A DNA stretch of 64,000 nucleotides. Origin: Parcubacteria bacterium OLB19 (GTDB lineage: Bacteria; Patescibacteriota; Minisyncoccia; Phycocordibacterales; UBA918). The notes beneath the pieces were generated by a model that worked only from the letters and a program-made list of their open reading frames with translations, had not been told where the DNA came from and made no database searches. The stretch's first letter is position 1, and every line of letters begins with the position of its first letter. The stretch is taken from the NCBI GenBank assembly GCA_001567365.1, contig JZEL01000029.1, positions 17,525 to 81,524 on the forward strand. Direction: 5' to 3'. Of this stretch, positions 5,717-59,174 are shown one piece after another. Made by a program: the position numbers and the translations under genes.

Positions 5717-7438
5717 TTAGCGATCAGGTGGGATTGTATAATAATTAATCAGAAATTTTGCTATATCCATAAAGGGCTCGGTTAGTGTCTCTGAAGCATA
5801 CTTCACCCCTTTCGGCTCAACAGTATACATGAAAACAATGAATTTGGGGTCAAAGGCAGGAAAATAGCCAAAGAATGAGTGTAAATACTTATCTTCATAA
5901 TAACCACCACCATTAGGATCTGCTATTTGCGCAGTTCCGGTTTTGGCACCAATAGTGTAATTTTGCATCTTAAATTTACCTTTACCCAGAGCTTCATCCA
6001 CCACCGTAGTAAGCATGCGAGAAATCTCTTCACTACTTTCTTTGCTAATAACCTGCGCACCCTTAGGATGGAGAATTTCTTTCACAGTACCATCTTCGTA
6101 CTCAATCGCTGATGCCAAGTGTGGCGTTACCAAATACCCTCCATTACCGAGAGTCGCCAAAGCGCGGATAGTAGCGATTGGGGTTAAGGCAATACCTTGT
6201 CCAAAAGACGCTGTTGCATATTCGACATCACGAGGGGATTTTAGATTTTCAATCAAACCAAAAGCTTCATTGGGTTGATCGATACCAGTTTCGCTTCCTA
6301 ATTTGAAATTATAAAAATATTCTCGAAACTTTTCCTTACCCATCTTTTGAACAATATACGATACACCTGTATTTAAAGATTGATTCAATACTTCTTGCAT
6401 TTCTACCGTACCACGACCTTTTCCGTCATAGTTCTTGATTGTAAAAGTATTTAAAGTAATAGAACCAGCATCAAAATAGGTTGAATGACGATTAATAGCA
6501 CCACTATCAAGTCCGGCCGCCATCGTTAAAGCTTTGATAGTAGAACCAAATTCATAAACGTTTTCCACTAACGGATTTTGGAAGAACTCGACTGTTGTTG
6601 TTCCTCGATCATTTAAATTAAACCCCGGTACTGCATTCATCGCATAAATAGCGCCGGTCTTTGGATCCATAATGATGGCGCCAGTCATTTTGCTTTCATA
6701 ACGAGCATTAGTTTCAAGCAATACAGAATCTAGCATTCGCGCTACAGTTGGCTCTATAGTAGTAACAACGTCACCCTTGGGTGATGATTCCTCTTTACTA
6801 TAGACCATATCTCCGAGGTTACTAAAAATTTCGGCAAAGAAGTTAACCGACCGGACCTCACGATCACGCACCAAAACATCATCATAATAACGCTCAAGGC
6901 CATACTTACCATGAAGATCATCATCAGTTTTTTCTGTGTAACCAACAAACCCTATTACCTTAGCCGTCAAATCATCACCCGGATAATAGCGCCATTGATT
7001 GCGATAAAGCTGAACACCATCGAGATCAAGATTTTCAATTTGTTCTGCGATTTCATCAGGAATGGTAAGATCAATCTCTACGTAAGTACGTTCCTTCAAA
7101 CTAGCTTTTTCTAAACAACGTTCCTTCTCCACCTTTAAAAATGGTTGTAACTTTTCACAAACAGCATTTGGGTCTGTGATTATAGTTGGATTAAACGCCA
7201 ACAAAAACCCAGAACGGATTGAAGCGGCGGAAACTTTCTCTCCGTCCTTGGTAGTAAAAAAAATCGAACCACGAGAATACAAATCCTGCTTAGTATGTAC
7301 ATATTGTCTCTCTGCCCTGTCAGTATAAAAATCATTTTGACTTACCTGCAAACAATATAATCTAAACAATAATATTAAGGCTAAAAATAGAACAATGCCG
7401 GTAATGACACGAATTCTTATTACCATTTCGCGTCTCAT
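5717..7438 (-). CDS. ftsI: penicillin-binding protein FtsI (class B transpeptidase)
   Basis: N-terminal TM. SxxK (GSTIKAL), SxN (NQSLNTG) and KTG (GAKTGTAQ) motifs. Position in the dcw cluster. Confidence 0.85.
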   Translation of the reverse strand: MRREMVIRIRVITGIVLFLALILLFRLYCLQVSQNDFYTDRAERQYVHTKQDLYSRGSIFFTTKDGEKVSAASIRSGFLLAFNPTIITDPNAVCEKLQPFLKVEKERCLEKASLKERTYVEIDLTIPDEIAEQIENLDLDGVQLYRNQWRYYPGDDLTAKVIGFVGYTEKTDDDLHGKYGLERYYDDVLVRDREVRSVNFFAEIFSNLGDMVYSKEESSPKGDVVTTIEPTVARMLDSVLLETNARYESKMTGAIIMDPKTGAIYAMNAVPGFNLNDRGTTTVEFFQNPLVENVYEFGSTIKALTMAAGLDSGAINRHSTYFDAGSITLNTFTIKNYDGKGRGTVEMQEVLNQSLNTGVSYIVQKMGKEKFREYFYNFKLGSETGIDQPNEAFGLIENLKSPRDVEYATASFGQGIALTPIATIRALATLGNGGYLVTPHLASAIEYEDGTVKEILHPKGAQVISKESSEEISRMLTTVVDEALGKGKFKMQNYTIGAKTGTAQIADPNGGGYYEDKYLHSFFGYFPAFDPKFIVFMYTVEPKGVKYASETLTEPFMDIAKFLINYYTIPPDR

Positions 7439-7447
7439 AGTAGAAAA

Positions 7448-7759
7448 TTATTCAGCATCTGAACGAAATACTAGATTCTGCTCAGCCCTACTTATGAAAA
7501 TTTTGTTGTGATTTTCGGTAAAACCACCGACTGTTGCTACCTCAGTACTAATTCTATGTTGTGCAACGATATACGCTGATTCCAAACGAGCAATTTCGGA
7601 TCTAAGCTCATTTAAATTATGCATAGCTTCCTTCCGCATCACCACATGCATTACAGACAAACTAAGAAAATACATATACAAAACAATACCAGCAAGAAAC
7701 AAACCAAGACATAAAGTGGTAATTAAATGATTGTATTGATTTATAACTTGATTGTTCAT
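7448..7759 (-). CDS. ftsL: cell division protein FtsL-like (TM + coiled coil)
   Basis: 103 aa with a single TM and a heptad-like region. Located between rsmH and ftsI. Confidence 0.5.
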   Translation of the reverse strand: MNNQVINQYNHLITTLCLGLFLAGIVLYMYFLSLSVMHVVMRKEAMHNLNELRSEIARLESAYIVAQHRISTEVATVGGFTENHNKIFISRAEQNLVFRSDAE

Positions 7760-7768
7760 AAACTTTGT

Positions 7769-8668
7769 TTATTCTGTATTTACTCTGCTTATAATTCTTA
7801 ATTTGGCACTTCTGGCCCTAGGGTTATTTTGAAGTTCATCGTCACTAGCGGTAATGGGTTTTTTATTAACCAAAACAAATAGTCCATTATCGACCAATTC
7901 CCTGAATTTAAGTTTAACGATTCGGTCTTCAATGCTATGAAAACTAATAATCGCCAATCGTCCATTAAGCGCTAAGGCTTCAACCGCCTTATCAATAAAA
8001 TTCTCTAGGACTTTTAATTCGTCATTGACAGCAATTCGTAAAGCTTGAAAGGTTTTTGTAGCCGGATGGATAGTTTTTTTGAAAGACCTTCTAGGTACAA
8101 CTTTTTCCACTATTTCGGCCAACTCCTTGGCAGTAGCTATTGGTTTAATCTTTCTCGAAACAGCGATGGCGCGGGCGATTTTACGAGCATAACGCTCTTC
8201 CCCATAACCATAAATCACATTAGCAATATCTTCTTCCGACCAACCATTTACGATATCGTAGGCGGTAAACAAATAGTCATTAGACTCACCAAAAGTCATA
8301 AGTAATGGTTCCTCCGCTTGAAAAGAGAATCCCTTTCCACCATCAGTAAATTGATCGGTTCGCCAACCAAGATCAGCTAAAATTGCGTCGACTTTTTCTA
8401 TATTTAAAGAGCTCAGGATTGTATTAAGATTTGAAAAATTATCATTGATTAAATGTATAGTTGGAGCATTTTTTTTAAGTTCTAGAGGATTATCTCTAAA
8501 AGCGGTTTTGTCAGCATCGATACCAACATAAACACCTTGTTTTCCCAACTGTCCGCAAATCAATTTTGCATGTCCACCACCACCATAGGTTGCATCAACT
8601 ACCACACTGTTCTTATTTAATGCCAGTGCCTCTACCGCCTCAGTTTGTAGAACTGTGATGTGCTTCAT
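7769..8668 (-). CDS. rsmH: 16S rRNA (cytosine1402-N4)-methyltransferase RsmH/MraW
   Basis: DATYGGGGHA SAM-binding motif. Adjacent to mraZ. Confidence 0.9.
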   Translation of the reverse strand: MKHITVLQTEAVEALALNKNSVVVDATYGGGGHAKLICGQLGKQGVYVGIDADKTAFRDNPLELKKNAPTIHLINDNFSNLNTILSSLNIEKVDAILADLGWRTDQFTDGGKGFSFQAEEPLLMTFGESNDYLFTAYDIVNGWSEEDIANVIYGYGEERYARKIARAIAVSRKIKPIATAKELAEIVEKVVPRRSFKKTIHPATKTFQALRIAVNDELKVLENFIDKAVEALALNGRLAIISFHSIEDRIVKLKFRELVDNGLFVLVNKKPITASDDELQNNPRARSAKLRIISRVNTE

Positions 8669-8691
8669 GGTAATAAAAGTAGAAAGAGAAT

Positions 8692-9126
8692 TTATAGGAC
8701 ACCAATCTCTCCGAGTTTTTCAGCAAGAGCGTCAGCTTCTAGCTCGATCTTGCGCTTATACTCAGTCCATTTTTCCTCATCCCAAATTTCGATACGATTA
8801 TGGATACCGGCAAGCACAACGTTTGTACTTAAGGTAGCAAAATCTTTCAAAAAGTCTGGCACGAGAATACGTCCAACTGAATCCACCTCCACCTCTACTG
8901 CTCCCGACAAGAAGAATCGATTGAAGCTTCTTGTATCCGCCTGTCCGAGTGGAAGTTGACCAATCTTTTCAGTGATCTTCTCCCACTCCCGGAGCGGATA
9001 TACAAAGAGACAGTTGTCGAGACCTCGGGTTACTACAAGTTCTTTCCCAAGTTCCTTTCGCCATTTAGACGGTAAGGACAGCCGTTTCTTAGGATCCAAC
9101 GTATGCTTGTATTCGCCGATTAACAT
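8692..9126 (-). CDS. mraZ: transcriptional regulator MraZ
   Basis: 144 aa with duplicated MraZ halves. MLIGEYKHTLDPKKRLSLPSKWR start. Confidence 0.9.
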   Translation of the reverse strand: MLIGEYKHTLDPKKRLSLPSKWRKELGKELVVTRGLDNCLFVYPLREWEKITEKIGQLPLGQADTRSFNRFFLSGAVEVEVDSVGRILVPDFLKDFATLSTNVVLAGIHNRIEIWDEEKWTEYKRKIELEADALAEKLGEIGVL

Positions 9127-9254
9127 ATCTCAACTAGTCTATACGACTTTCGTCGTATTTTCCACTATCTCCCACCACACGTACATTGTATACCACTTTA
9201 CCCCACCTGCAACTACTTTATACCCAGAAATTGGGTATAACTTTCTACAAATAC

Positions 9255-9295
9255 AAAAAACCGGTGGATTCCTACGGAATCCACCGGTTTTTTGT
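9255..9295. terminator. strong bidirectional rho-independent terminator (aaaaaaccggtggattcc-tac-ggaatccaccggtttttt)
   Basis: Perfect 18-bp stem with A6/T6 flanks, downstream of lysS. Confidence 0.7.
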
Positions 9296-9397
9296 TTACT
9301 ATTTTACTTTGCTAACCCGAACCCTTTAGTTACAGATTCAATCTCAGTCTGCCCACCAAAAACCAATACACCAAGATATTCTATTTCGTCATTTTTC

Positions 9398-11197
9398 TTA
9401 CCAGCTGTAATTTCTTTTTATTTTCTTATCATTAGTTGTTTCCAACATCTCTCTAGTAAAAACAGCTACTTGTAGATTACTTTCTCTAGCTATAGTTAGC
9501 AACTTTTTTAACTCTTCATTTGTATCTGAAACTTTTACCATAATTGGATGTTGTATATTCAAAGGGATTGATACACCATCACTAGTTTCAATAGAATCAT
9601 ATTTCAAAAGTGATTTACCGCCTCTGACACCAAGTTCAGCTCCTAAATGAGCAATTGTATTTGCTATTTGCCATGATTCCAAATTAGCTTCTGTGTTATA
9701 GACAGCTACGGCCACCTTTCTTTCTTTTTCCTTTATTGACACATCTTTAGATTTCATCAACGGAAATAATTGTGTCTCACGGATTGGTTTATCTTCCAAG
9801 ATTGCAAATAGTCTTTCACCAAAACCAAAACCACAAGCTGGTGGCATACCGTGCTCAAGCATTTCTACGAATTCAAAATCTGGCATCATAGCTTCAGCAT
9901 CACCTCTTTCAATTAGAGTTTGTTGTAAATCAAAACGAGCTTTCTGCTCCAAAGGATCGTTTAGTTCTGAATAGCCATTTCCTACTTCCGTACCGGCAAT
10001 AATCGGCTGAAAGCGTTGTGTAGCACCAGGTTGCCCAACCACCTCTTTAGCTAAAGGCGAAACAAGTTTTGGATGATTGATTAAAAAAGCCGGACCAGCA
10101 ATATGTTTACGACAATACTTCCACAAAGTATCAGTAAGACGTTCGATATTATCTCCTTCGTACTTCACTCCAAGCGCATTTAATTTGCTTTTTATTTCTT
10201 CCTCATTGGTGTTTAGCAAATCTATATCAGTCTGCCTTTTAATCTCTGTTATGTAATCAACCTTAATCCACTCATCTGCCAAATCGAAGGTATGCTCTCC
10301 GCGTGTAAATTTGGTCGTGCCATATACCTCACTAGCAATCGTTCGATAAAGATTTTCCACTAAACGCATACCATCTTCATAATCAGCAAAAGCTTGGTAA
10401 AATTCCAAATTAGTAAATTCTTGTAAATGATTTGGACTTGTACCTTCATTACGATAAACACGACCAATTTCGAAAATCTTTTCAAAACCAGCTGATAGAA
10501 GCCTTTTCTGCCACAATTCCCCTACCGAGATACGCAGGAAAACATCAATATCAAAATCATTATGATGAGTTGCAAAAGGTCTAGCTTCAGCACCACCAGT
10601 TGTTACTTCTAGCGTCGGAGTTTCCACTTCAGTGAAACCCTGTTCCTTCATAAAACTCCTAGTCACATCCCAAAACTTTTCCTTACGCTTAAACATCTGA
10701 CGCAGTTCATCACGACCTAATAAATCTAGATATCTTTTTCTAATTCTCTCCTCCTCATCTTGTAAACCATGATATTTATCTGGCAAAGGTAGTAGACTTT
10801 TTGTGACCATGCGCCAAGATTCTACTAAAAGTGATTTTTCACCTCTTTGCGTCACAAACAGTGTGCCGGTTACATCAATAAAATCACCTCCATCGACCAC
10901 ATCTTTAAACAGAGAAAACGACTCTTCTGGGATAACATCTTCTTTAAACACCACCTGTAATTTACCAGTTGCATCCTGTAACACCACAAACATGATTGCC
11001 CCTTGTCCACGCACAACCATTACTCGCCCAACTATAGTGATAATCTTTTTCTCTATCTCCAAATCAGAAAACTGCTCAAGCACAGAAATAATTTCATGTG
11101 ACCGATTTACCTCTGCTGGATAAGGATTTATGCCTTTATCTTTTAAAATTTGCAGTTTTTTTAAGCGCTCAGCGCGAATTTCTTCTAGTGATGACAT
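9398..11197 (-). CDS. lysS: lysyl-tRNA synthetase (class II) with ~105-aa C-terminal extra domain (PTH2/DUF2000-like pattern)
   Basis: N-terminal OB-fold anticodon-binding domain. Class II motifs, with the core ending ...GFGFGERLFAILEDKPIRETQLFPLMK around residue 493. A further 106 aa follow: KVAVAVYNTEANLESWQIANTIAHLGAELG ... HPIMVKVSDTNEELKKLLTIARESNLQVAVFT. Confidence 0.85.
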   Translation of the reverse strand: MSSLEEIRAERLKKLQILKDKGINPYPAEVNRSHEIISVLEQFSDLEIEKKIITIVGRVMVVRGQGAIMFVVLQDATGKLQVVFKEDVIPEESFSLFKDVVDGGDFIDVTGTLFVTQRGEKSLLVESWRMVTKSLLPLPDKYHGLQDEEERIRKRYLDLLGRDELRQMFKRKEKFWDVTRSFMKEQGFTEVETPTLEVTTGGAEARPFATHHNDFDIDVFLRISVGELWQKRLLSAGFEKIFEIGRVYRNEGTSPNHLQEFTNLEFYQAFADYEDGMRLVENLYRTIASEVYGTTKFTRGEHTFDLADEWIKVDYITEIKRQTDIDLLNTNEEEIKSKLNALGVKYEGDNIERLTDTLWKYCRKHIAGPAFLINHPKLVSPLAKEVVGQPGATQRFQPIIAGTEVGNGYSELNDPLEQKARFDLQQTLIERGDAEAMMPDFEFVEMLEHGMPPACGFGFGERLFAILEDKPIRETQLFPLMKSKDVSIKEKERKVAVAVYNTEANLESWQIANTIAHLGAELGVRGGKSLLKYDSIETSDGVSIPLNIQHPIMVKVSDTNEELKKLLTIARESNLQVAVFTREMLETTNDKKIKRNYSW

Positions 11198-11232
11198 AAT
11201 GGCTGTAGTGTAACGGGAAAATGAGAAAAATA

Positions 11233-11270
11233 AAAGCCCCGAAGGCTACGCCTTCGGGGCTTTTATTTTT
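11233..11270. terminator. bidirectional terminator (aaaagccccgaaggc-tac-gccttcggggctttt)
   Basis: Perfect 15-bp stem. The same core (ccgaaggctacgccttcgg) recurs at ~29055. Confidence 0.65.
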
Positions 11271-11278
11271 CTCATTTT

Positions 11279-11770
11279 CTACTCAACCTTCAAGATCTTA
11301 TACTTCTGCTTACCAGCTGGAGTATCAAAAGTGAATTCATCACCCTTAGTCTTCCCCATCAAAGCTTCTCCGAGCGGTGACAAGTAGGACAATTTGCGCT
11401 CATGAATATTAGCCTCATCAGAACCAACAATGGTGTAGTTGCGAGTATCTTTCTCCTTATCCTTTTGAATAGTCACAACTGAACCCAAACCTACAACATC
11501 ACCTTTCTTCTCGTGCGCAACAATCTTAGCCTCCTTAATAACCTTTTCTAGATAACTGATTCTTTCTTCGATTGCTGCCTGCATATCACGAGCTTCTTGA
11601 TATTCGGCATTTTCTGATAAGTCACCAAGACTACGAGCATACTCTAGTGATTCAGCCACTTCTTTACGTCTAACAGTCTTTAAATGATCAAGTTCTTTTT
11701 TTAATTCCTCAAACTTTTCGGCGGTTAAAAATGCTTGTGTATCGTTCATATGCAATAAAAATTTATCCAA
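11279..11770 (-). CDS. greA: transcription elongation factor GreA
   Basis: N-terminal coiled coil and C-terminal FKBP-like domain. ...ARSLGDLSENAEYQEARDMQ... signature. Confidence 0.9.
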   Translation of the reverse strand: MDKFLLHMNDTQAFLTAEKFEELKKELDHLKTVRRKEVAESLEYARSLGDLSENAEYQEARDMQAAIEERISYLEKVIKEAKIVAHEKKGDVVGLGSVVTIQKDKEKDTRNYTIVGSDEANIHERKLSYLSPLGEALMGKTKGDEFTFDTPAGKQKYKILKVE

Positions 11771-11811
11771 TTATACTTACTTCGCCGTATCGGTCAAATC
11801 ACCAATAATGA

Positions 11812-13509
11812 TCATTCGTTATCAACCTTAATTCCTAAATATTCCGGTCGATTCTTCGACATCCATTCTACCACATCGCCCATGATTCTGGTGGCACCAA
11901 GCGCGTTACTCCTTGGAGCTTTATCCATCATCAAAATAAATGCATACTGTGGATTTTCATAAGGAAAAAAACCGGCCGCCCAAGAATTGACGTAGGCATT
12001 ACCAGCACCGATTTCTGCCGTACCAGATTTGGCAGCCACCGCTACATCATCACGTTCCAGACCTCTAGCTGTTCCACCATCATAGTTTACAGTCTTTCTC
12101 ATACCTTCGTGGACAATTTTTAGATAATCCTGATTTAAATGAAGATCAGTCATATTTCCTTGTTTACCCTTTACCACGTGTGGTTCAATCAAATATCCAC
12201 CGTTAGCCAAAGCTGAATAAGCTCTAAGCATTTGTATCGGGGTGGTCAAGAAACCAAACTGCCCAATAGCCGTAAAATACGTATCACCCAAGCGCCAATC
12301 ATCGTCAAACACTTCTTTCTTCCAAGTTGGATCAGGTACAACTCCAGCTTGCTCCTCTGCAATATTGATACCCGTCTTAGAACCAAGTCCGAACTTTCGG
12401 TAATACTCAGACATCTTGGTGATACCAAGACCTTTTTGATCACCAAAACCGCCACCGATTATGTAAAAGTATACATTGGATGAGAAAGCGATTGCCTCAC
12501 GCATTGTCATAGCACCATGAGCCCGCCAATCAGTGAAATGCGCAGGATTGTCTGGATTATAAGGATTAGGTACTACTATTTCACCAGTACTAACTATAAT
12601 TTTGTTTGGATCAATGATTTTTTCTGACAAAGCCGCGTAAGCTACAAATGGCTTTACTATTGACCCTGGAGTATAGGCACCACTTATGACTTTATTTAAA
12701 AAAGGTAGACGATCATCATTATTATAAGTTTCTATAGTTGCCACCTCATCACCGTCAGCCATCACTTCTGGATCATAACTAGGAAAACTAGTAAGAGCTA
12801 TCAATTCACCAGTATGAACGTCCATTATTGCTCCTGCACCACTACGAAATCCAGCTTTAGCACTAGAAGTGGAAATAATCTGATACATAGCCTCAGACAA
12901 CTCGGCATCGATAGATAAATGCAAGGGTTCGCCTGACACCGCATAATCAAGCGCATGTTCACTAATAACGTTATTTAAAGCATCTGCCACCACAATCTTG
13001 CTCCCATTTTTTCCTTTTAACAGATCATCATAGGCAGCTTCCACTCCATTTCTACCAAGATACTCAGTACGAAAATAAAATCCACGATTATCTTTCTTTG
13101 GATAACTTACATATCCAAGCACCTGACCCAAACCAAGTCGATCAGTGTAAGCTCTGATTGGAAAATCATAATGACCACTCTGGTCTACTTCGTTCCAAAC
13201 CACCATTTCCCCTTTACGGTCGTAGATAACTCCTCTTTCGGCAATAATAGTACTTCTATCCACCGTATTTGATTCAGCAATAGCCAAAAACTCCTCACCT
13301 TTGGTGACCTGCAAAACGTAAACCTTACTTAAAAAAAAGACCGCTACCAAAACAAATACCACCCCAACTTTATATATACTCTTGTTAGGAATTGGTAATT
13401 CTCTTTTACCTTCTAATCGATCAAGATCTAACCCTAGAATATTGGTTGCGTCCAGCAAAACCTCATCTACCTCGACTTGATTTTGTCTTTTTTTACGAAA
13501 CCATCTCAT
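11812..13509 (-). CDS. mrdA: penicillin-binding protein 2 (MrdA, elongasome transpeptidase)
   Basis: Class B PBP motifs SxxK (GSIVKPF), SxN (FSSNVYF), K(S/T)G (AKSGTAE). Directly downstream of mreBCD. Confidence 0.8.
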   Translation of the reverse strand: MRWFRKKRQNQVEVDEVLLDATNILGLDLDRLEGKRELPIPNKSIYKVGVVFVLVAVFFLSKVYVLQVTKGEEFLAIAESNTVDRSTIIAERGVIYDRKGEMVVWNEVDQSGHYDFPIRAYTDRLGLGQVLGYVSYPKKDNRGFYFRTEYLGRNGVEAAYDDLLKGKNGSKIVVADALNNVISEHALDYAVSGEPLHLSIDAELSEAMYQIISTSSAKAGFRSGAGAIMDVHTGELIALTSFPSYDPEVMADGDEVATIETYNNDDRLPFLNKVISGAYTPGSIVKPFVAYAALSEKIIDPNKIIVSTGEIVVPNPYNPDNPAHFTDWRAHGAMTMREAIAFSSNVYFYIIGGGFGDQKGLGITKMSEYYRKFGLGSKTGINIAEEQAGVVPDPTWKKEVFDDDWRLGDTYFTAIGQFGFLTTPIQMLRAYSALANGGYLIEPHVVKGKQGNMTDLHLNQDYLKIVHEGMRKTVNYDGGTARGLERDDVAVAAKSGTAEIGAGNAYVNSWAAGFFPYENPQYAFILMMDKAPRSNALGATRIMGDVVEWMSKNRPEYLGIKVDNE

Positions 13510-13804
13510 CGTTTTTAGTATACATCAATAACGACGGTTTTAGTAAATCAACCAAAAACACCGCACTGATAGTAATAATACTAAGTATTGGTATAGAATT
13601 AAAAGCACCAAAATAACCATCGGTCAATATCGCTACCAAAATCAATTCATAACCAGTAAATTTAAACATATACCAAAGAGCAATCGGTATTACCAGCCAA
13701 TAAAGTGGAGTAATGATTAAAAAAGTTATTAAAATAAAAAGTAAAATTCGCAACATACAATCACTGATTAATCGTACCTGTAGCAGTAGTGGAAGAAATT
13801 TCAT
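13493..13804 (-). CDS. mreD: MreD-like rod-shape protein (polytopic small membrane protein)
   Basis: 103-aa hydrophobic protein between mreC and mrdA. Assignment rests on position and hydropathy only. Confidence 0.4.
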   Translation of the reverse strand: MKFLPLLLQVRLISDCMLRILLFILITFLIITPLYWLVIPIALWYMFKFTGYELILVAILTDGYFGAFNSIPILSIITISAVFLVDLLKPSLLMYTKNDEMVS

Positions 13805-14762
13805 CCGCAGGAGTACTGGAAGCGGTGGTTGTAGCTAATTCAGCCTTAATCTTGGCGGAAATTGATTCTATGGTTGTGTCACTCATAAGCATCTTTTGTC
13901 TAATTGCATTTTTAATCGTTTCTTCGATATCATATTCGGTTTTTGGTTCAACTGCCTCAATATCAATAGATACATAAAAAATACTATTCATCGCTGTCGG
14001 CGGGGTTACATAACCATACTGTTCTGGTTGAGTAGGATGATTTTCTACTGAAATGATTTCACCATAGACTCCGTTAGACACCCCTGGCAATAACACCAAC
14101 TGTCCAACAGTAAGTGGTACTCCTTGTGGTAACTTTACCCGAGCCACTCCTCCACCCATACCTTCAAGAGTACTAAAAACATTAGGACCAATTACATAAG
14201 CAGTTGATTCAAAACCAGGTGTAGTAAATAATTCTACAAAAGCATACTTAGAAGACACTTCTGCCACTACTCCAATAACAGAATCTAATCCTGAATAAAC
14301 TGGCACACCGACCGACACTCCATGATCAGAACCTCTGTCAATCTGCATTAAATCATAAGCTAGGCTATTTGGGCGCGCTATTACCCTAGCCACCAAACGA
14401 TCGCTAGAACTACTCACATTAGCCAGAGCTCTAAGTTGCATATTCTCTTCCAACAATCGATCAATAGAAAGTTGTGTGCCGGTCTCGGTTACCAATTCTG
14501 CTCTCAGAGTTTCAAGTTCATTTACCAATTCTGCTCTCGAACGTAAATAAGTGGGAAAAACTCCATCTGAATTTTTTACCCAAGCAGTAGTAGCATGAAA
14601 AGGATACAAAACAACCATTGACACCTTAGACACAAGCCAAGGTAATAACAAACCGATTACCACCAAAAAAATGGAGGTAAAGAACCAAAACCGTCGCCTT
14701 TTATGTAAGGTACGGGGATAATTCACCTTCGTTATCGATGAGTACTTCTTCATATTGTTCAA
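13761..14762 (-). CDS. mreC: rod shape-determining protein MreC (with Ser/Thr-rich C-terminal tail)
   Basis: N-terminal TM, coiled coil (LRSRAELVNELETLRAEL) and beta-rich MreC domain. Follows mreB. Confidence 0.8.
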   Translation of the reverse strand: MNNMKKYSSITKVNYPRTLHKRRRFWFFTSIFLVVIGLLLPWLVSKVSMVVLYPFHATTAWVKNSDGVFPTYLRSRAELVNELETLRAELVTETGTQLSIDRLLEENMQLRALANVSSSSDRLVARVIARPNSLAYDLMQIDRGSDHGVSVGVPVYSGLDSVIGVVAEVSSKYAFVELFTTPGFESTAYVIGPNVFSTLEGMGGGVARVKLPQGVPLTVGQLVLLPGVSNGVYGEIISVENHPTQPEQYGYVTPPTAMNSIFYVSIDIEAVEPKTEYDIEETIKNAIRQKMLMSDTTIESISAKIKAELATTTASSTPADEISSTTATGTINQ

Positions 14763-15774
14763 AATTTTCTATTACAATACCAGCCCCGCGCACCACCGAA
14801 CGTAATGGATCAGGCACAATAATTACTGGTACCTGTAAATTTTCTTCCAACAAATCAGCCAATCCCGGAATCAAGGCACCACCTCCGCAAACATGAATTC
14901 CCCTTTGCATTACATCAGCCAAAACTTCCGGTGGCGTTTTTTCCAACACCGCTTTAGTGGATTCTATAATTGTATCAATTTGTCCAGCCACCGCATCCTT
15001 CACATCACCAGCAGTGATAATTACCTCCCGAGGTAAACCAGTCATAACATCACGTCCTCGTATCACCATCTCATTACTACTACCATCAAATTTTACCGAT
15101 GCCAGAGCAATCTTAGCCTCTTCAGCCGTTTTCTCGCCAACATAAACTTTAAATTGATCACGAATATAAGAGGCTATAGCTGAGTTTAAATGATCTCCAG
15201 CCACACGTAAATTTTTTGCCACCACAATTCCATTTAGTGAAATTACTGCTATATCAGTAGTACCCCCACCAATATCAATAATCATATTACCAGCGGCTTT
15301 ACCTACCGGTAATTTTGCACCAATAGCAGCTGCCATCGGTTCTTCAATTAAAAACACATCACGAGCTCCGGCATTTTTAGCAGCATCGCGAGCTGCTCGC
15401 ATCTCAACATTAGTAATACCAGAAGGCACACCGATTAACATACGCGGAGCAATAAAAGATTTCACATCACTCTGGACTTTGTTAATCAAATATCCGAGCA
15501 TTTCTTCTGTCACCTCAAAATCTGATATCACACCATCAACCAAAGGTCGTACCACTTCAATATGTTGCGGAGTTCGTCCTTGCATAGATTTTGCATCCTG
15601 ACCAACAGCCACCAGCTGACCGGTTTTCTTATTAACAGCCACAATGGTTGGTTCATTCAATACAATACCTTTATTTTTTACATAAACTAATGTATTAGCG
15701 GTACCTAAATCAATAGCAATATCAGTCGAAACCACTGATAAAAACTTATTTAAATTTTGGGTTAAAAAACTCAT
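14701..15774 (-). CDS. mreB: actin homolog MreB
   Basis: IAIDLGTANTLVYVKNKGIVLNEPTIVAV ... IGGGTTDIAVISL ... canonical MreB motifs. Confidence 0.9.
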   Translation of the reverse strand: MSFLTQNLNKFLSVVSTDIAIDLGTANTLVYVKNKGIVLNEPTIVAVNKKTGQLVAVGQDAKSMQGRTPQHIEVVRPLVDGVISDFEVTEEMLGYLINKVQSDVKSFIAPRMLIGVPSGITNVEMRAARDAAKNAGARDVFLIEEPMAAAIGAKLPVGKAAGNMIIDIGGGTTDIAVISLNGIVVAKNLRVAGDHLNSAIASYIRDQFKVYVGEKTAEEAKIALASVKFDGSSNEMVIRGRDVMTGLPREVIITAGDVKDAVAGQIDTIIESTKAVLEKTPPEVLADVMQRGIHVCGGGALIPGLADLLEENLQVPVIIVPDPLRSVVRGAGIVIENFEQYEEVLIDNEGELSPYLT

Positions 15775-33576: not shown

Positions 33577-33724
33577 TAAAAAACCAAACCCCTAAAATCC
33601 CAAACCGAAAAGGTTGAATATTGATTTTTTTTCTGTACAATAGGGTAACTTGATTTTTCAAGCTGTTCTTTGAGATATTGATTGTTTTACTCCGGTGTAG
33701 CTCAGCGGTAGAGCAGTCGACTGT

Positions 33725-34310
33725 GGACATTCGTCAATTTATGTTGATGATATACTTTTATATCATGATCAAAAAAAGAGACGAGAACCTATGCCGATCG
33801 TGCCGAGTACTTAAAATTAGCAGTTATCAAACGCCGTAAAAAAAGTGCGGGATATGGCTCTTGAGTACAAAGGTGGCAAATGCTGCATTTGCGGTTACAA
33901 TAAAAGTAAACGCGCACTTTCCTTTCACCATATAGATCCTAATAATAAAGACTTCGGTATTTCTTATCGAGGATTTACTAGGTCATGGGATAAAACTAAG
34001 ACCGAATTAGATAAATGCATCTTAGTTTGCATGAATTGCCACATGGAAATACACGACGGTATTACGCAGCTTCCGATAGAAATATCGGAATGAAAACAAG
34101 GTGAATTGTCTGGAAGCCCGAAACAGGTAAAGCTGTGGGTAATCAGCAGCCAAGCTTTTTGGTCAACGAGGCCGAACTGAAGGTTCAGAGACTATCCCTT
34201 ACGGGAGTACGGCTCGAAAGAGTTGGAAGCGCCTTGCACCCTATGATTTAAATTATTTATATCACGGGTGATGATATAGTCCATCCCTTTAGGAAACTTT
34301 TGGATAAATG
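33725..34310 (+). mobile_element. group I-like self-splicing intron (IC3-like core motifs) carrying an HNH homing-endonuclease ORF
   Basis: Exon ends in U and intron ends in G. The 3' part contains agccaagcuu and guucagagacuaucccuuacggga, resembling the P6/P7 (cagagacua) region of bacterial tRNA group I introns. An internal guide sequence was not confidently identified by eye. Confidence 0.5.
33845..34093 (+). CDS. HNH endonuclease (intron-encoded homing endonuclease candidate)
   Basis: 82 aa with CxxCG...HHIDP...N...CMNCH HNH/zinc motifs. Lies entirely inside the tRNA-Asn intron. Confidence 0.7.
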   Translation: MRDMALEYKGGKCCICGYNKSKRALSFHHIDPNNKDFGISYRGFTRSWDKTKTELDKCILVCMNCHMEIHDGITQLPIEISE

Positions 34311-34376
34311 TAATCGATTGGTCGCAGGTTCGAATCCTGCCGCCGGAGCAAAGAAATCAATATTCTTAAAAAATAT

Positions 34377-52881: not shown

Positions 52882-53508
52882 CTACCCCTCCTTCGCGACA
52901 ATCATCGCCTTTACTCTCATAGTAGATACCACCGCATCACGAGCTCGTTCATCGAGTTGCATGGCGATAAATTTAATAGTTTCCTCTAAATTTGGAATCA
53001 TCACATTCTCAAGAGCCGATACTCGACGACGAGTTTTTTCAATTTCTTCAGCTAGGTTTTCAGCACTTTTCTCCAATCCTGCCAAACGCATAATATCAAC
53101 AAAAACCTCGTCGAATTTTACAATCGCATTATCCAAATCTCCAGAAGTATCTAAGGAACCATAAGCAAAAGCCGAACCTTCCTTAGATACCTTAAACTCA
53201 GGGATCTTAACAGACATTACAGTCTTCACAGCTACTTCGAGATTAATTTCCGCATTAGGCACCAACAAAGCCACCTCCTGAGCTAAACGTGAAGTAGTTG
53301 CACTTGAGCGCTGATAAGAATCAAAAGCCATACCCAATCGCTCTTCAACTGACTTTCGTAAATCGCGAGTTTCAAAGATTATCGCCATAAACTTTTTGAT
53401 CAAGCCATCACGCTTGTCTTTTAGAAGTTTATGTCCCTTCTTGGCTACCTTAAGTTCTTTCTTAAGATTTAGAAGAGAAATTCGTGTTGGACTAACTTTT
53501 AATATCAT
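52882..53508 (-). CDS. atpD: A/V-type ATP synthase subunit D
   Basis: 208-aa coiled-coil protein MILKVSPTRISLLNLKKELKVAKKGHKLLKDKRD… typical of V-ATPase D. Confidence 0.85.
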   Translation of the reverse strand: MILKVSPTRISLLNLKKELKVAKKGHKLLKDKRDGLIKKFMAIIFETRDLRKSVEERLGMAFDSYQRSSATTSRLAQEVALLVPNAEINLEVAVKTVMSVKIPEFKVSKEGSAFAYGSLDTSGDLDNAIVKFDEVFVDIMRLAGLEKSAENLAEEIEKTRRRVSALENVMIPNLEETIKFIAMQLDERARDAVVSTMRVKAMIVAKEG

Positions 53509-53524
53509 GTTTTATGTAGACGAA

Positions 53525-54904
53525 TTATTCAGCCTTTGGCATGTGTTTGTCGACAAACTCAGCTTTAACACGCTTCAACGATTCACGAGGAAGCATAGCT
53601 AGAAGTTTCCAACCAATATCAAGTGATTCTTCTACCGAACGATTTTCAAATTCACCTTGCCCCACAAACTCACGTTCAAAAGCTTCCGCGAAGCGCAAAT
53701 GTGCCTTATCTGAATCATCAAGTGAAGCTTCACCCAATACTACTGCCAACTCTCGTACTTCACGACCGACTGCATAAGAAGCAAACAATTGATCTTTAAG
53801 ACCACTATGATCAGCACGAGTCTTACCTTCACCTACTCCAGCTGACCATAATCGAGACAAAGAACCTTGTACATCCACCGGTGGAAATACACCCTTACGA
53901 TATAATTCGCGGGAAATCACAAACTGCCCTTCTGTAATGTAACCAGTAAGGTCAGGTACCGGATGAGTCTTGTCATCATCAGGCATACTTAGAATTGGAA
54001 TTTGTGTAATAGTTCCCTGCTTACCTTTTACCCGTCCAGCTCTTTCATAAATAGTAGAAAGGTCAGTATACAAATACCCCGGATAACCACGTCGGCCAGG
54101 CACCTCCTTTCGTACAGAAGATACTTCACGCAAAGCTTCACAGTAGTTGGTCATGTCAGTCAAAATCACCAGTACGTGCATTCCCTTTTCAAAAGCCAAG
54201 TACTCAGCTGTAGTCAAAGCCATACGTGGTGTGGAAATACGCTCAACCACTGGGTCAGCCGCTGTATTGATGAAAAGTACACTTCTCTCAAGTGAACCAG
54301 CTTCTTGAAATTGACGCTTAAAGTATTCAGCTTCTTCAAAAGACACACCGAGAGTAGCAAATACAATCGCAAACTCTCCACCATCTTTCACTTTTGCTTG
54401 ACGAGCAATTTGCGCTGCCAAACGTGAGTGCGGTAAACCAGCTCCAGAAAAGATTGGTAGCTTTTGTCCACGCACCAAAGTATTCATCACGTCGATTGAT
54501 GAAATACCAGTTTGAATAAAGTCATTAGGGAATTCACGACTGTAAGGATTGATAGCGTTACCATTAATATCGATACGCTTTTCAGGGATAATTTCTGGAC
54601 CACCGTCATTTATTACACCAGCACCCGTAAAGACCCGACCGAGCATGTCTTCACTTACACCAAGCTTCAATGTATCACCTGTAAAACGTACACGAGTATC
54701 TTCAGCTTGTACTCCAGCCGTTGGATCAAACATCTGTACCACGGCTTTATCTTCTGACACATCAAGCACCTTACCCAAACGGGTCTGATTTTCGCCCGGA
54801 ACATTTACTTCCACCAACTCTTCGTACTTTACTCCACTAACTCCCTCAACCACCAAAAGTGGTCCAGTAATAGCAGAAACGGTTTTGTATTCTTTTTGAC
54901 TCAT
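53525..54904 (-). CDS. atpB: A/V-type ATP synthase subunit B
   Basis: 459 aa. Non-catalytic B subunit pattern, with a degenerate P-loop region and SGAGLPH…. Confidence 0.9.
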
Positions 54905-54908
54905 ATTA

Positions 54909-56702
54909 TTAAGCGTTAGTTTGGGTTAGAGCTTTGATTTCCTCTTTGACTCTACTAATAAAATTCTCATAATCTGATACTTCACGTTTCTCCTTTAGAC
55001 GACCAATTTCTTTATAAGTAGACATTTGCTTGAAACGAGAAAACTCAAATTCATCAGTAGTCACAACCGGTAAACCTTCATTGTAGAAAGTAACAATTGA
55101 TTTAAGAAGATTGTACTGAATCTTGATCGGCATATATGCATCACTAGGGTCAAAAGCGTTTTGCATTAGGAAATCTTCACGAATCATACGTGCCACTTCC
55201 AAAGTAAGTTTGTCACTGTTTGATAATGACTCCATACCCACAAGACGAACAATCTCAAGCAATTTTGATTCCTTTTCCAAGAGCTCCATTGCTTGTTTTC
55301 GAATATTAGCAAAATCAGGGGCTACATTTTCACGCCAGAAATCTAATAAGTTATCAACGTAAAGTGAATATGAACCAAGCCAGTTGATAGATGGGAAATG
55401 TTTTTTGTAGGCCAATCCAGCATCAAGTGACCAGAAAGTTTTGGTCACACGTAGAGTTGATTGTGACACTGGTTCAGACAAGTCTCCACCAGGAGGAGAA
55501 ACCGCACCAATTACTGTGAGTGACCCTTGTCTCCCTTCAGAACCAAGAGTTTCTACTACACCAGCTCTTTCATAAAATTGTGCTGTGCGAGAAGAAAGAT
55601 AAGCTGGATAACCTTCCTCTCCCGGCATTTCTTCCAAACGTCCTGAAATTTCACGCATCGCCTCTGCCCAACGTGAAGTAGAGTCAGCCATTAAAGCTAC
55701 GTTATAACCCATATCACGATAGTACTCAGCAATAGTAATACCGGTATAAACTGAAGCTTCACGTGCCGCTACTGGCATATTAGAAGTGTTAGCAATGAGG
55801 ATAGTTCGCTTCATCAAAGGCTCACCTGAGTTTGGATCAATCAAGTGTGGAAACTCAGAAAGCACTTCTGTCATTTCATTTCCTCGTTCACCACAACCAA
55901 TATATACAATCACTTCAGCATTACAGTATTTAGAAATAGATTGTTGAGTCACAGTCTTACCAGCACCAAACGGCCCAGGAATACACCCAGCTCCACCTTT
56001 AGCTATTGGGAACAAAGTATCAATCGAACGACCACCAGTTAAAAGCGGTTCCGATGGGAAAATCTTTTTATTCTTTGGTCTTGGCTCACGAATTGGCCAA
56101 TATTGAAGCATAGCTACCACTTCAATTTCACCAGACTCAGTTTTAATCTCTGCAATTGTTTCTGTGATATTAAAATTACCTGATTTGATATTAGTAATTA
56201 CACCAGAAACATGAGGTGGTACCATTACCTTATGTACAATTAACTTAGTTTCAGCAACCGTACCCAAAATATCACCGCCAGTTACTTTGTCGCCTACTTT
56301 GGCTACAGCTTTAAAATCCCATTTTTTATTCTTATCCAAAGCCTCAGCATCAATACCTCTTTTAATATATACAGAACCGGAAGCCTCCTCGATAGCCTTT
56401 AGAGGTCGTTGCACGCCATCATAGATAGACTCCAAAAGACCAGGGGCTAGTGCCACTGACATAGTTTTACCGGTACGAAAAACCGGATCACCGGGCCCAA
56501 CACCAGTTGTATCTTCATACACCTGAATTGAGGCAATATCACCATTCAACTCAATTATTTCTCCAAGAAGTTTTTCTGAAGACACTTTAACCAACTCATA
56601 AAGTTTGGCAGAAGACATGCCGTTGGCACGCACCAATGGACCCGTCACTCTCACGATTTCTCCTGCCTTTGTTGCTTCTTGTGTATTAATTGTATTTGTC
56701 AT
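54909..56702 (-). CDS. atpA: A/V-type ATP synthase catalytic subunit A
   Basis: 597 aa. Walker A GPFGAGKT with flanking V-ATPase A non-homologous insert. Confidence 0.9.
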
Positions 56703-56728
56703 GGTAATAAATTTATAAATTGTTTCTG

Positions 56729-57118
56729 TTAAATAATGGCTGCTCCGATGGCTTTTTCTGCTAATTTCCGTAATCTTGCTTCTGCCAATCCTTGACTACC
56801 CTTAGCGCTTGGCAACAAGACCACAGCCGGTAATGGTCCACTGACCACTTTGGCATATTCTTTTTCGTCCATGCCTACCATTAAATCCTCAATTACACAG
56901 ACCACAGCGTATGGTGTTGGATTATTTTCGGAATTATTAATCTGTTTAATTTTACGCAATTGTCCCAAAACTTCGTCAGAAGTTTTCGCATCAAAAGCCT
57001 CTACTCCTAAAGCTTTAAAGCCCGATACGACATCACCCGGACCAACGATAGCAATTTTATACTGATTGATGTTTTTAGACATAAATTGCGCGTAATTGTT
57101 TTCGAATAACCTCTCCAC
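56729..57118 (-). CDS. atpF: A/V-type ATP synthase subunit F
   Basis: 129 aa. KIAIVGPGDVVSGFKALGVEAF pattern of V-ATPase F. Confidence 0.6.
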   Translation of the reverse strand: MERLFENNYAQFMSKNINQYKIAIVGPGDVVSGFKALGVEAFDAKTSDEVLGQLRKIKQINNSENNPTPYAVVCVIEDLMVGMDEKEYAKVVSGPLPAVVLLPSAKGSQGLAEARLRKLAEKAIGAAII

Positions 57119-58049
57119 TTTGTTTATTCTCTTTCCCTATTACAATGGCTTGTATGTTCAAAGAGACGTTTTGTTGTTTTAACAAATAAGAAACTAGGGT
57201 CGCAACTGAAAAAACATCATTACCCATCCCTTTAATTGCCACCAGAAGGTATTCATCTAGTTTGACATTGAAAGTAGTAAAATGTCCGTTCTCTAAATAT
57301 TCGCTAACAGCCTCCTTCCAAAAACGTTCACCACCAAAAGTATTCAATCTAGCTAGGAGTTTTTCCTGGGTATCAATACTGGTAAAAGCAAAACTGCCAC
57401 CATTAACAAACCAAGAAGAATCAATATCGCCTAAAGCAAATGAACGAAGACCGGTTTTTAAGTTGTACAAATCAATTTGTAATTTTAACAATTCAGCCAA
57501 AACACGATTGTCGGTTTTGTTGACCAAACTTTCTGCTAGCAAGAAATAGCCTTTATCAAATTCTTGATCCGCATTAGCTAATCCACTACCTATAACCTTT
57601 ATCGCTCGGTCATAAATGTTTTTTAAATCACTATTTATTTGTTCTAGAGTGCCAGTTTTGGCTCGTTCAAATAAAACCACAGGATCATATTTTCCCAGTT
57701 TTGACATATATGGCAAAACCTCATCTAGACCCTTACCCACCTTCAGAGCTCGCAGGATAACTCTTAAATTATGGATATCGAATCTAAACCAAAAATAAGA
57801 AAACAATTCAGGTTCCGGAGAAATTTTCTCCAAAAGGTTTTTGGTCTCAAGATTAGTTTTTTCTAGCACTGAAAATATATTGTCAATTTTATCTTCTCCA
57901 GTTAAAGAATTAAGATGAGTGTCTTTCAAAGTTTTTAACAACTCATCTGTATCTGTTACCGACAAAAGACGCTCTATATCAGCTTCACTAAGTAAACTCT
58001 TTTCTAGAGTTTTAACACGACTGGAACTGTAGATATAGGATGTCGACAT
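57075..58049 (-). CDS. atpC: A/V-type ATP synthase subunit C (V0 d-like)
   Basis: 324-aa all-helical protein in the conserved position between E and F. Confidence 0.65.
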   Translation of the reverse strand: MSTSYIYSSSRVKTLEKSLLSEADIERLLSVTDTDELLKTLKDTHLNSLTGEDKIDNIFSVLEKTNLETKNLLEKISPEPELFSYFWFRFDIHNLRVILRALKVGKGLDEVLPYMSKLGKYDPVVLFERAKTGTLEQINSDLKNIYDRAIKVIGSGLANADQEFDKGYFLLAESLVNKTDNRVLAELLKLQIDLYNLKTGLRSFALGDIDSSWFVNGGSFAFTSIDTQEKLLARLNTFGGERFWKEAVSEYLENGHFTTFNVKLDEYLLVAIKGMGNDVFSVATLVSYLLKQQNVSLNIQAIVIGKENKQSGEVIRKQLRAIYV

Positions 58050-58058
58050 AGGTTTTAA

Positions 58059-58631
58059 TTATTTCTGAAATAGATTTTTAGCTATCTCAATCTCTGAACT
58101 TGAACGAATTTCTGAAAAGAGTTTTTCTATTGATAGATCAAACTCAAAATCAGAACCAACAAAAACCAAACCACCCTTCAGTCTTGCACTTACCACCAAA
58201 GGCGCCGACACACCTAGGGCTTTAAGAATTTCTGAACTTTCTGACTGACGATGGTCTGGTGACAAAACCGACACCACCTCAATATTCTTCGGTAGAATAT
58301 TTTTATAACGTTCAGTCAAAATCGAAACATAATCTGAAGAAGACAAAGCTAATACTGATGACAAAGCTTCAGAAAACACTTCATCCAAAACTCGACGTTT
58401 TTCAGTTTGTACAGCTAAGTTGGCTTTTTGTTTTTCAAGTGACAAAGTAACGTTCTCGTAGTGTTCACTTTTCTTCTTGAACTCAGTTTGAAAACCAGCT
58501 TTAATATCGCCAATCTTTCGATCAGTTTCCTGTCTGATTTCAGAAACACGCTTCTCTGCCTCTGCCAAAATCTCATTGGCTTCGGCTTCAGAATCGGACT
58601 TTATTTTTTCAATTATTGCTTGTAATGACAT
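58059..58631 (-). CDS. atpE: A/V-type ATP synthase subunit E
   Basis: 190 aa. Long N-terminal helix (AEANEILAEAEKRVSEIRQE…) plus C-terminal globular domain. Confidence 0.7.
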   Translation of the reverse strand: MSLQAIIEKIKSDSEAEANEILAEAEKRVSEIRQETDRKIGDIKAGFQTEFKKKSEHYENVTLSLEKQKANLAVQTEKRRVLDEVFSEALSSVLALSSSDYVSILTERYKNILPKNIEVVSVLSPDHRQSESSEILKALGVSAPLVVSARLKGGLVFVGSDFEFDLSIEKLFSEIRSSSEIEIAKNLFQK

Positions 58632-58640
58632 GCAAAGATG

Positions 58641-59123: not shown

Positions 59124-59174
59124 AAAATTTAAATGAATTTAACTTAATAAATAAAGGTAGTTTTAGGTATCAAA

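Follow-up and report, generated by a model that had tools for sequence, protein, structure and literature searches.

The stretch analysed here, a window of 64,000 nucleotides from Parcubacteria bacterium OLB19, carries on its minus strand a lysS gene whose reading frame continues well beyond the end of the lysyl-tRNA synthetase (LysRS) it encodes (Table 1). The gene product, 100% identical in sequence to the LysRS recorded for OLB19, is a normal class II LysRS of the bacterial LysS type, with an OB domain and a class IIb core. Two NCBIfam models, NF001756 (lysine--tRNA ligase; 506.5 bits, cut-off 468) and TIGR00499 (448 bits, cut-off 427.6), matched the ORF over residues of about 5-483. An earlier reading of the letters alone (the sequence-only reading) had the core ending in LFPLMKSKD at residue 493; the motif was correctly recognised, but the position is residue 485.

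Table 1. Features of the lysS-DUF2000 locus, in coordinates of the window
Feature	Position	Strand	Basis or remark
Annotated lysS ORF	9398..11197	-	599 aa
Reconstructed full lysS-DUF2000 gene	9304..11197	-	630 codons + stop, one A removed at 9415-9419
OB-fold anticodon-binding domain, residues 53-130	10808..11041	-	PF01336, E 3.8e-14
Class II (D/K/N type) catalytic core, residues 147-481	9755..10759	-	PF00152, E 2.4e-64
Lys/Glu-rich linker KSKDVSIKEKER, residues 482-493	9719..9754	-	AF2 pLDDT and alignment variability
DUF2000 / PTH2-fold domain, first 101 residues (494-594), annotated frame	9416..9718	-	PF09391, conservation, AF2
A5 homopolymer with one extra base	9415..9419	-	Sequence, three-frame translation, homologues in single frame
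Last 36 DUF2000 codons EITAGKKNDEIEYLGVLVFGGQTEIESVTKGFGLAK: predicted strand 4, helix 4, C-terminal strand	9307..9414	-	Out of frame in assembly
Stop codon TAA of reconstructed gene	9304..9306	-	Sequence
Intrinsic terminator, 20-bp hairpin and U run	9253..9295	-	Starts 9 nt past reconstructed stop

The LysRS C-terminus is followed by a flexible linker, some 12 residues long, and then by a complete DUF2000 domain of 137 residues. The pLDDT of the linker was below 50 at residues 480-491 of the full-length AF2 model, and both its length and its sequence varied among fused homologues (alignment A1). Residues 503-595 of the 599-aa ORF matched the Pfam family PF09391 (DUF2000) with an E value of 1.1e-10 and about 42-47 bits, the cut-off (gathering score) of this family being 25 bits. 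Within residues 494-594, W509, N513, H517, D540, N547 and the motif F580-T-R-E583-M584-L-E-T-T-N589-D590-K-K are conserved. The invariant residues of the domain, as judged from alignment conservation, are polar (N, H, D, E, T) and not basic or hydrophobic, which indicates a specific site, for binding or catalysis, rather than a generic RNA-binding or packing surface.

The annotated frame covers only positions 8-98 of the 133 positions of the DUF2000 profile and, as a result of a +1 insertion in the A5 run, ends in RNYSW at a stop codon at 9398..9400. When one A was removed, the match extended over profile positions 8-132 of 133 (E 1.8e-21, 76.9 bits), a gain of some 30 bits in the Pfam score. 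The 36 codons that lie out of frame in the assembly hold no stop and contain the family-conserved residues L608, G609, G614 and T623. The corrected length of 630 aa fits that of the fused homologues (626-634 aa), which read the junction (...KKI[KI]E[IA]T...) in a single frame. The terminator hairpin behind the reconstructed stop folds with -32.8 kcal/mol (z -9.1), and none of 200 shuffled sequences folded as well. The domain, taken by the sequence-only reading to be DUF2000-like and to end at 9398, is indeed DUF2000-like but continues out of frame to 9307. That reading overlooked the sequencing-type error in this gene: the frameshift truncates the domain, and does not create it.

Fusion to DUF2000 recurs among the LysRS proteins of CPR/Patescibacteria, where it is a conserved architecture and not an accident. 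PF09391 was present in 28 of the 120 closest LysRS clusters. The DUF2000 domain lay directly behind the LysRS core in every one of 56 GTDB species loci with upstream DNA, as one ORF in 50 of them, while another 4-5 keep a single frame provided that TGA is taken as a sense codon. All but three of the locus titles say CPR/Patescibacteria or are unspecific, and the long matches of an exhaustive search of representatives were mostly LysRS fusions. It had been proposed to check related LysRS orthologues for the same extension, and we found it in at least 55 species-level genomes. Some of these proteins bear further domains beside DUF2000 at the LysRS C-terminus, namely an AlaX-type editing domain (P0166), a PheRS-type B3/4 domain (P0196) and HD domains (P0130, P0137 and P0152). 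Acquisition of AlaX-type, B3/4 and HD domains at the same C-terminus suggests handling of acyl-tRNA as a common theme. The domain is dispensable, since the 18 LysRS clusters closest to OLB19 LysRS (86-90% core identity, 485 aa) are without it and share the same greA-lysS-mraZ synteny.

Structure prediction of the isolated domain gave a model with pLDDT 88 and pTM 0.79. With this model as query, Foldseek returned 2GAX and all PTH2 entries with a probability of 1.0, everything else being below 0.2. The DUF2000 domain of LysRS is thus predicted to have the PTH2 fold, which is also the fold of 2GAX. Profile search and structure prediction, both suggested as checks by the sequence-only reading, bore out its view of a PTH2/DUF2000-like C-terminal extension, with the above-cut-off PF09391 match and the PTH2 fold of the model; of the two peptides it had quoted, the first spans strand 1 and helix 1 of the modelled domain, and the second strand 2, helix 3 and strand 3. 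A Pfam scan of the LysRS protein gave no match to PF01981 (PTH2) at E up to 10, and in a profile search against the PDB, 2GAX was the only match for the domain. Alignment to a PTH2 alignment by hhalign ran from end to end with P values of 1e-4 to 3e-3, but at just 11-27% probability.

Pth2 of S. solfataricus reportedly requires K18, D86 and T90, K18 being the catalytic Lys at the start of helix 1, and D86 and T90 the catalytic Asp and Thr of the loop after strand 3. In the hhalign alignments the invariant His of PTH2 was aligned with H517, and the catalytic Lys (K18) with Q510 (Q29 in alignment A1), a position occupied by Q, E, S or A across the wider DUF2000 family. The counterpart of D86 fell at or next to E586 in one run (a gapped printout with an ambiguity of about one residue) and at D590, which is 98% conserved, in the other, per-column confidence being low in both. 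DUF2000 domains are acidic to neutral, with a median pI of about 6, as against about 9 for PTH2 enzymes. A generic basic tRNA-binding appendage is unlikely, given the net charge of the domain. The full-length AF2 model (pTM 0.52) had a disordered linker and did not dock the domain on the core with confidence.

Stand-alone DUF2000 proteins are abundant in Proteobacteria (5356 matches); a search with 2GAX returned, among the matches listed, only near-identical Agrobacterium proteins. Two stand-alone neighbourhoods were examined, that of Atu0240, which has a divergent AraC regulator next to it, and that of P0170, which is monocistronic; no link to translation was seen in either. When the six-frame ORFs of the window were searched by phmmer with an E. 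coli Pth query, no separate pth gene was found at E up to 10, and Pfam scans of the window ORFs of about 190 aa revealed a flavodoxin-like protein, V-ATPase E and a deformylase, but no Pth. A search of the available literature gave no described activity for any DUF2000 protein; queries on LysRS and Pth2 returned just one Pth1 paper, and those on a LysRS extension in CPR nothing relevant.

On the strength of sequence and modelled structure, we tentatively suggest that the DUF2000 module may be a tethered accessory hydrolase at the acylated 3' end of tRNALys, a role we consider somewhat short of probable. Coupled tRNA recycling or trans-editing, the task that the sequence-only reading had in mind for the fusion, may be involved. 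The anticodon-binding domain of LysRS would provide the recognition of tRNALys, and the mobile PTH2-fold domain would take the CCA end and cleave an unwanted ester, either that of dropped-off peptidyl-tRNALys (peptidyl or N-acyl) or that of a non-cognate aminoacyl residue. Once freed, tRNALys could be recharged by the same LysRS enzyme. The functional surface would be the one used by PTH2, which comprises the first half of helix 1 and the loop that follows strand 3. W509, N513, H517, E583, T587, N589 and D590, which are nearly all the invariant polar residues of the fused subfamily, map to this PTH2-like surface of the model. The chemistry would have to differ from that of PTH2, because the catalytic Lys of PTH2 is absent. 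In E. coli deficient in Pth, growth was limited by tRNALys sequestered as peptidyl-tRNA, according to a study of 1996 as cited in PMC11994314. Carried to its full extent, the proposal would describe a CPR enzyme that strips and recharges, in which a LysRS-tethered PTH2-fold esterase specifically clears tRNALys of peptidyl groups, N-acyl groups or wrong amino acids, and the same polypeptide then re-aminoacylates it; in this specific form we regard it as unlikely.

Several observations speak against a tethered hydrolase. At the level of the domain, these are the mismatch to PF01981, Q510 in place of Lys, the ambiguous counterpart of D86, Phe in 2GAX at the position of H517, and the acidic to neutral pI. 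At the level of genes and of the whole protein, they are the stand-alone neighbourhoods without a link to translation, the closest relatives without the domain, and the want of a confident docking.

The domain might alternatively be a ligand-binding, regulatory or protein-interaction module having only ancestry and fold in common with PTH2; examples would be a sensor of an amino acid or nucleotide, or a module that acts on a small molecule, for instance an aminoacyl-adenylate. Such a role is plausible though doubtful. It would agree with the non-conservation of the catalytic Lys of PTH2, with an acidic to neutral charge unlike that of PTH2, with the abundance of stand-alone members, two of which (Atu0240 and P0170) have neighbourhoods without a link to translation, and with the absence of the domain from close relatives. 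It accounts less readily for a CPR subfamily linked only to LysRS, for the deacylase-type domains (AlaX-type and B3/4) found in the same polypeptides, and for conserved motifs placed where PTH2 has its active site, towards the N-terminus of helix 1 and in the loop that follows strand 3.

The OLB genomes, to which OLB19 belongs, were assembled from IonTorrent data with 'persistent frameshifts' according to the assembly authors, who had applied an indel-correction step. Since OLB19 was assembled from IonTorrent reads, a sequencing error is likely; most likely the extra A is a residual homopolymer error of this kind and the real product has 630 aa. Exact-pattern and protein-guided scans of metagenome contigs gave no independent copy of the same strain in which A4 could be told from A5.

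It is improbable that the frameshift is real and marks a domain undergoing loss in this lineage, an incipient pseudo-domain that is already gone from the nearest relatives. The 18 most similar LysRS clusters, of 485 aa and without the domain, would fit such a loss, as would a relative (L060) with a clean absence in the same synteny and the fact that the assembly had already passed indel correction by its authors; but the out-of-frame codons are free of stops, retain all the family-conserved residues and contribute their 30 bits or so, just one base is affected, within an A5 run, as is typical of IonTorrent errors, and the terminator stands directly behind the reconstructed stop. Programmed +1 ribosomal frameshifting at AAA-A-GAA, by which expression of the full domain would hinge on translation conditions, is highly improbable. 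A slip of the P-site tRNALys from AAA to the overlapping AAA is chemically possible, with AUA AAA AGA read as AUA AAA (A) GAA, and would occur in the gene for LysRS itself; against it, the junction is in one frame in all homologues examined, the 0-frame A-site codon AGA is not a stop and is unlikely to be rare or slow in a genome of 34-44% GC, and the assembly, again, derives from IonTorrent data. Non-coding read-through from a lost LysRS stop codon, which the sequence-only reading had itself raised, deserves hardly any credence and was rejected: close relatives do terminate straight after LFPLMRPKI, but the match to a curated domain family is far over threshold, the predicted fold is confident and the extension is conserved across dozens of species.

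If the tethered-hydrolase reading is true, the fusion would be the first case of a module of the peptidyl-tRNA hydrolase type built into an aminoacyl-tRNA synthetase, in a class of LysRS regarded as having no post-transfer editing or recycling domain. The large DUF2000 family would thereby gain its first function, and a fold considered archaeal and eukaryotic would be in use in bacteria. The fusion offers a testable handle on the role of DUF2000, a family of thousands of members with one orphan structure from 2006, and on tRNA quality control in organisms with minimal genomes. It also carries a lesson for annotation, the deposited OLB19 LysRS being most likely shortened by a homopolymer indel when it should have 630 aa.

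We know of no post-transfer editing domain in class II LysRS, nor of any aminoacyl-tRNA synthetase editing domain that uses the PTH2 fold. Among known proteins, PTH2/Bit1 (PF01981; 1WN2, 1XTY, 1Q7S) has the same fold as that predicted for the DUF2000 domain of LysRS. The latter, however, has Gln for the catalytic Lys and is acidic instead of basic; in its model a beta-hairpin takes the place of helix 2, and the catalytic loop has an insertion of two short helices. The DUF2000 domain is bacterial and fused to a synthetase; PTH2, by contrast, occurs in archaea and eukaryotes as a free homodimer (PMC11994314). The DUF2000 structure 2GAX is that of Atu0240 of Agrobacterium, a stand-alone protein of about 135 aa whose gene adjoins that of an AraC-type regulator; it shares 19% identity with the LysRS domain and has Phe for H517, which is invariant in the LysRS-linked subfamily. 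LysX of Mycobacterium, in which LysRS is joined to an MprF-type lysyl-phosphatidylglycerol synthase, likewise has a second domain, there acting on Lys-tRNALys. The LysRS part matched the LysX model NF002821 below its cut-off (417.9 bits against 742), and the partner in LysX is an N-terminal membrane transferase, while that in OLB19 LysRS is a small soluble C-terminal domain of predicted PTH2 fold. The editing domains of aminoacyl-tRNA synthetases (AlaRS/AlaX, ThrRS N2, PheRS B3/4 and ProRS INS/YbaK) are likewise hydrolase-fold modules tethered to a tRNA-recognising synthetase, and CPR LysRS variants combine DUF2000 with AlaX-like or B3/4 domains such as occur in those editing systems.

The ORF at 9398..11197 on the minus strand encodes a genuine LysRS of 599 aa, identical (100%) to the entry deposited as 'Lysine--tRNA ligase [Parcubacteria bacterium OLB19]'. 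Two curated LysRS models, NF001756 (506.5 bits, cut-off 468) and TIGR00499 (448 bits, cut-off 427.6), matched within residues 5-483. The core ended at the motif LFPLMKSKD, as the sequence-only reading had it, but at residue 485 and not near 493, and was followed by a Lys/Glu-rich linker. The same reading had claimed an extra C-terminal domain with a PTH2/DUF2000-like pattern. This domain is real, since PF09391 matched far beyond chance (E 1.1e-10, 42 bits, cut-off 25).

The annotated ORF spanned only positions 8-98 of the 133 in the PF09391 profile, and fused homologues were 626-634 aa long as compared to its 599 aa. Three-frame translation past the annotated stop revealed EITAGKKNDEIEYLGVLVFGGQTEIESVTKGFGLAK, closed by a stop, in another frame; it corresponds to the conserved C-terminal end of the homologues (...KKIKEITAGKK..VEYLGVLVFG...T..F.L..). 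The DNA at the frameshift reads AAA ATA AAA A GAA ATT ACA. Once the A5 run at 9415-9419 is shortened by one A, the frame encodes 630 aa and stops at 9306..9304; the corrected C-terminus matched DUF2000 over profile positions 8-132 of 133 (E 1.8e-21, 76.9 bits). The OLB genomes are IonTorrent assemblies, for which the authors report 'persistent frameshifts, common in IonTorrent data' (PMC4821891), and a residual homopolymer error most likely explains the truncation. Less probable, and formally conceivable, are a genuine mutation of very recent origin and programmed +1 slippage on AAA-A; in exact-pattern and protein-guided scans of metagenome contigs, no second copy of the strain turned up in which to compare the A run.

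We modelled the corrected domain with AF2 from an alignment of 25 fused homologues (pLDDT 88.1, pTM 0.79). Foldseek returned 2GAX, the solved DUF2000 structure of Agrobacterium Atu0240, first, followed by every PTH2 entry (1WN2, 1Q7S, 3ERJ, 1XTY, 2ZV3, 1RLK and 1RZW) at a probability of 0.96-1.0, all other matches being below 0.2. A PDB search with the fused-domain profile retrieved 2GAX (E 6e-5), and hhalign aligned this profile end to end with five PTH2 structures (P 1e-4 to 3e-3), so that sequence profiles lend weak support to the PTH2 fold. The proposed likeness was thus borne out, and OLB19 LysRS carries a complete DUF2000 domain with a modelled PTH2 fold. In the full-length AF2 monomer (pLDDT 78.6, pTM 0.52) linker residues 480-491 fell below 50 pLDDT and the domain appears flexibly tethered; at this pTM no docking geometry on the core can be claimed.

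Fromant and co-workers are said to have found in 2005 that Pth2 of S. solfataricus needs three residues: K18, where helix 1 begins, plus D86 and T90 of the loop that follows strand 3. Both hhalign runs paired K18 with Q510, and H25, the invariant His of PTH2, with H517. The partner of D86 was of low confidence: in one run it fell at or beside E586, in a gapped stretch with about one residue of ambiguity, and in the other at D590. A broader alignment combined fused and stand-alone sequences with 2GAX, 51 in all; there, positions conserved in at least 80% included W509, N513, H517, D540, N547, E583, M584, D590, G609 and T623, while position 510 was variable and 2GAX has Phe in place of H517. The strongest motifs, W-Q..N...H and F-T-R-E-M-L-E-T-T-N-D-K-K, therefore lie at the two places of the PTH2 active site. 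In contrast to PTH2, the LysRS-linked domain lacks the catalytic Lys, is acidic to neutral (median pI ~6, against ~9 for three PTH2 enzymes), has a beta-hairpin (residues 535-545) in place of helix 2, and has two extra short helices in the loop that follows strand 3.

The fusion is recurrent and specific to CPR LysRS. PF09391 was present on 28 of the 120 closest LysRS clusters. HMMER, run exhaustively over 1.84 billion cluster representatives with the truncated domain as query, gave 72 matches, the long ones mostly LysRS fusions. We scanned one genome per GTDB species with the pattern FT[RK]EM[LI]xT[TS]N, which is specific to the LysRS-linked subfamily and hence speaks for tight linkage inside CPR and not for absence elsewhere. 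All but three of the 59 loci obtained were labelled CPR/Patescibacteria (Paceibacterota, Nomura-, Kaiser-, Wolfe-, Taylor-, Zambryski-, Doudna-, Kuenen- and Gracilibacteria) or unspecifically 'bacterium'; the exceptions, two 'Nanoarchaeota' and one 'Azotimanducaceae', are probably mis-binned. The domain directly followed the LysRS core in all 56 loci having upstream DNA, as a single ORF in 50. Four others (L022, L033, L038, L054), and probably L036, form one frame if TGA is sense, and in L034 the domain adjoins the core in another frame. These TGA-containing genes have 5-9 in-frame TGA each; L022, L033 and L038 are Gracilibacteria-type, L054 and L036 being labelled only 'Patescibacteria group bacterium'. 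Such frames fit genetic code 25, and the fusion is present in that lineage also. Stand-alone DUF2000 is abundant (5356 matches with 2GAX as query). As the LysRS-linked His is Phe in Atu0240, proteobacterial stand-alone members may differ in role. In loci L061/L062 (4130-5408) the Atu0240 gene is divergent from an AraC-family regulator and adjoins lepA.

Further domains were found on fused proteins from the search of representatives. Three (P0130, P0137, P0152) read LysRS-DUF2000-HD (HD/HDIG domains), P0166 continues into an AlaX-like editing domain (tRNA_SAD; AlaXM model, E 3e-36), and P0196 has a PheRS-type B3/4 domain between core and DUF2000. Thus, the CPR LysRS C-terminus accumulates domains whose established target is the acylated tRNA 3' end. 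P0153 and P0157 have an extra N-terminal 130-180 aa.

The 18 clusters nearest to the OLB19 core (86-90% identity) are unfused, at 485 aa, and fused forms begin at 86% core identity. In one unfused relative (locus L060, 3001-4810), which shares mreC-PBP2-greA-lysS-mraZ synteny with the window (9100-11197 compared), lysS ends right past LFPLMRPKI and a terminator follows, with no domain remnant. The OLB19 domain shares 40-54% identity with other fused domains, against 78-90% for the cores. Taken with the unfused relatives, this gap makes the domain a dispensable accessory, gained, lost or exchanged between close relatives. Domains carried by distant LysRS cores resembled the OLB19 domain more closely (52-54%) than did those of the nearest fused cores (~43%), which hints at loss or exchange of the domain between close relatives.

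A cell-envelope/division cluster (5717-15774, minus strand) encloses the gene. Its listed mreC ORF has a TTG start 62 nt inside mreB, and is probably over-extended. ARAGORN called no tRNA in the window; when the halves of the apparently split tRNA gene (33691-34352) were joined in silico, a tRNA was predicted at many junctions, the anticodon (GUG, GAC, UGU, others) varying with the splice site.

Features of the LysRS-DUF2000 gene and of the window
Feature	Position	Strand	Basis or remark
OB anticodon-binding domain	residues 53-130		Pfam
Class II core of LysRS	residues 147-481		Pfam
DUF2000	residues 503-595 of annotated ORF		PF09391
Terminator hairpin	9 nt past corrected stop		20 bp, -32.8 kcal/mol, z -9.1, then U run
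PBP	5717-7438	-	
ftsL-like	7448-7759	-	
rsmH	7769-8668	-	
mraZ	8692-9126	-	
greA	11279-11770	-	next gene lysS-DUF2000
PBP2-like	11812-13509	-	
mreC	13761-14762	-	
mreB	14701-15774	-	
tRNA gene, apparently split by ~580-nt insert	33691-34352	+	
5' half of split tRNA	starts 33691	+	CTCCGGTGTAGCTCAGCGGTAGAGCAGTCGAC...
3' half of split tRNA	ends 34352	+	...GGTCGCAGGTTCGAATCCTGCCGCCGGAGCA
HNH-type ORF in tRNA insert	33845-34093		82 aa, overlaps intron 5' part
Group I intron match within tRNA insert	34003-34303		Rfam RF00028, full-length, 75.6 bits
V/A-type ATPase operon	~53500-61200	-	
Large subunit-sized ORFs of the operon	54909-56702, 53525-54904	-	
ATP-synt_F	56729-57118	-	Pfam
AC39	57075-58049	-	Pfam
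vATP-synt_E	58059-58631	-	Pfam

The tethered domain would act as a hydrolase on the acylated CCA end of tRNALys or, at the least, bind it specifically, and may recycle peptidyl- or N-acyl-tRNALys or else edit mischarged tRNALys. This is supported by the PTH2 fold, the placement of the conserved polar motifs, the co-occurring AlaX-type and B3/4 domains, and the special sensitivity of cells to tRNALys sequestration (Heurgue-Hamard et al. 1996, as cited in PMC11994314). Against it count that the catalytic Lys is absent, that the domain is acidic, that the gene contexts of stand-alone members are uninformative and that close relatives do without the domain; the searchable literature describes no biochemical activity of any DUF2000 protein, which we also counted against a hydrolase. 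A hydrolase is a tentative reading, somewhat short of an even chance. A non-hydrolytic ligand-binding or regulatory module is possible at slightly lower probability, and a decaying domain and exotic readings are, taken jointly, unlikely.

The architecture is not new to databases, as it is already visible in precomputed Pfam annotations; no description of it was found in the searchable literature. To our knowledge, the PTH2/DUF2000 fold is not in any known aaRS editing domain. LysRS-DUF2000 is best called an aaRS extended by a hydrolase-fold module, of a fold not earlier linked to LysRS.
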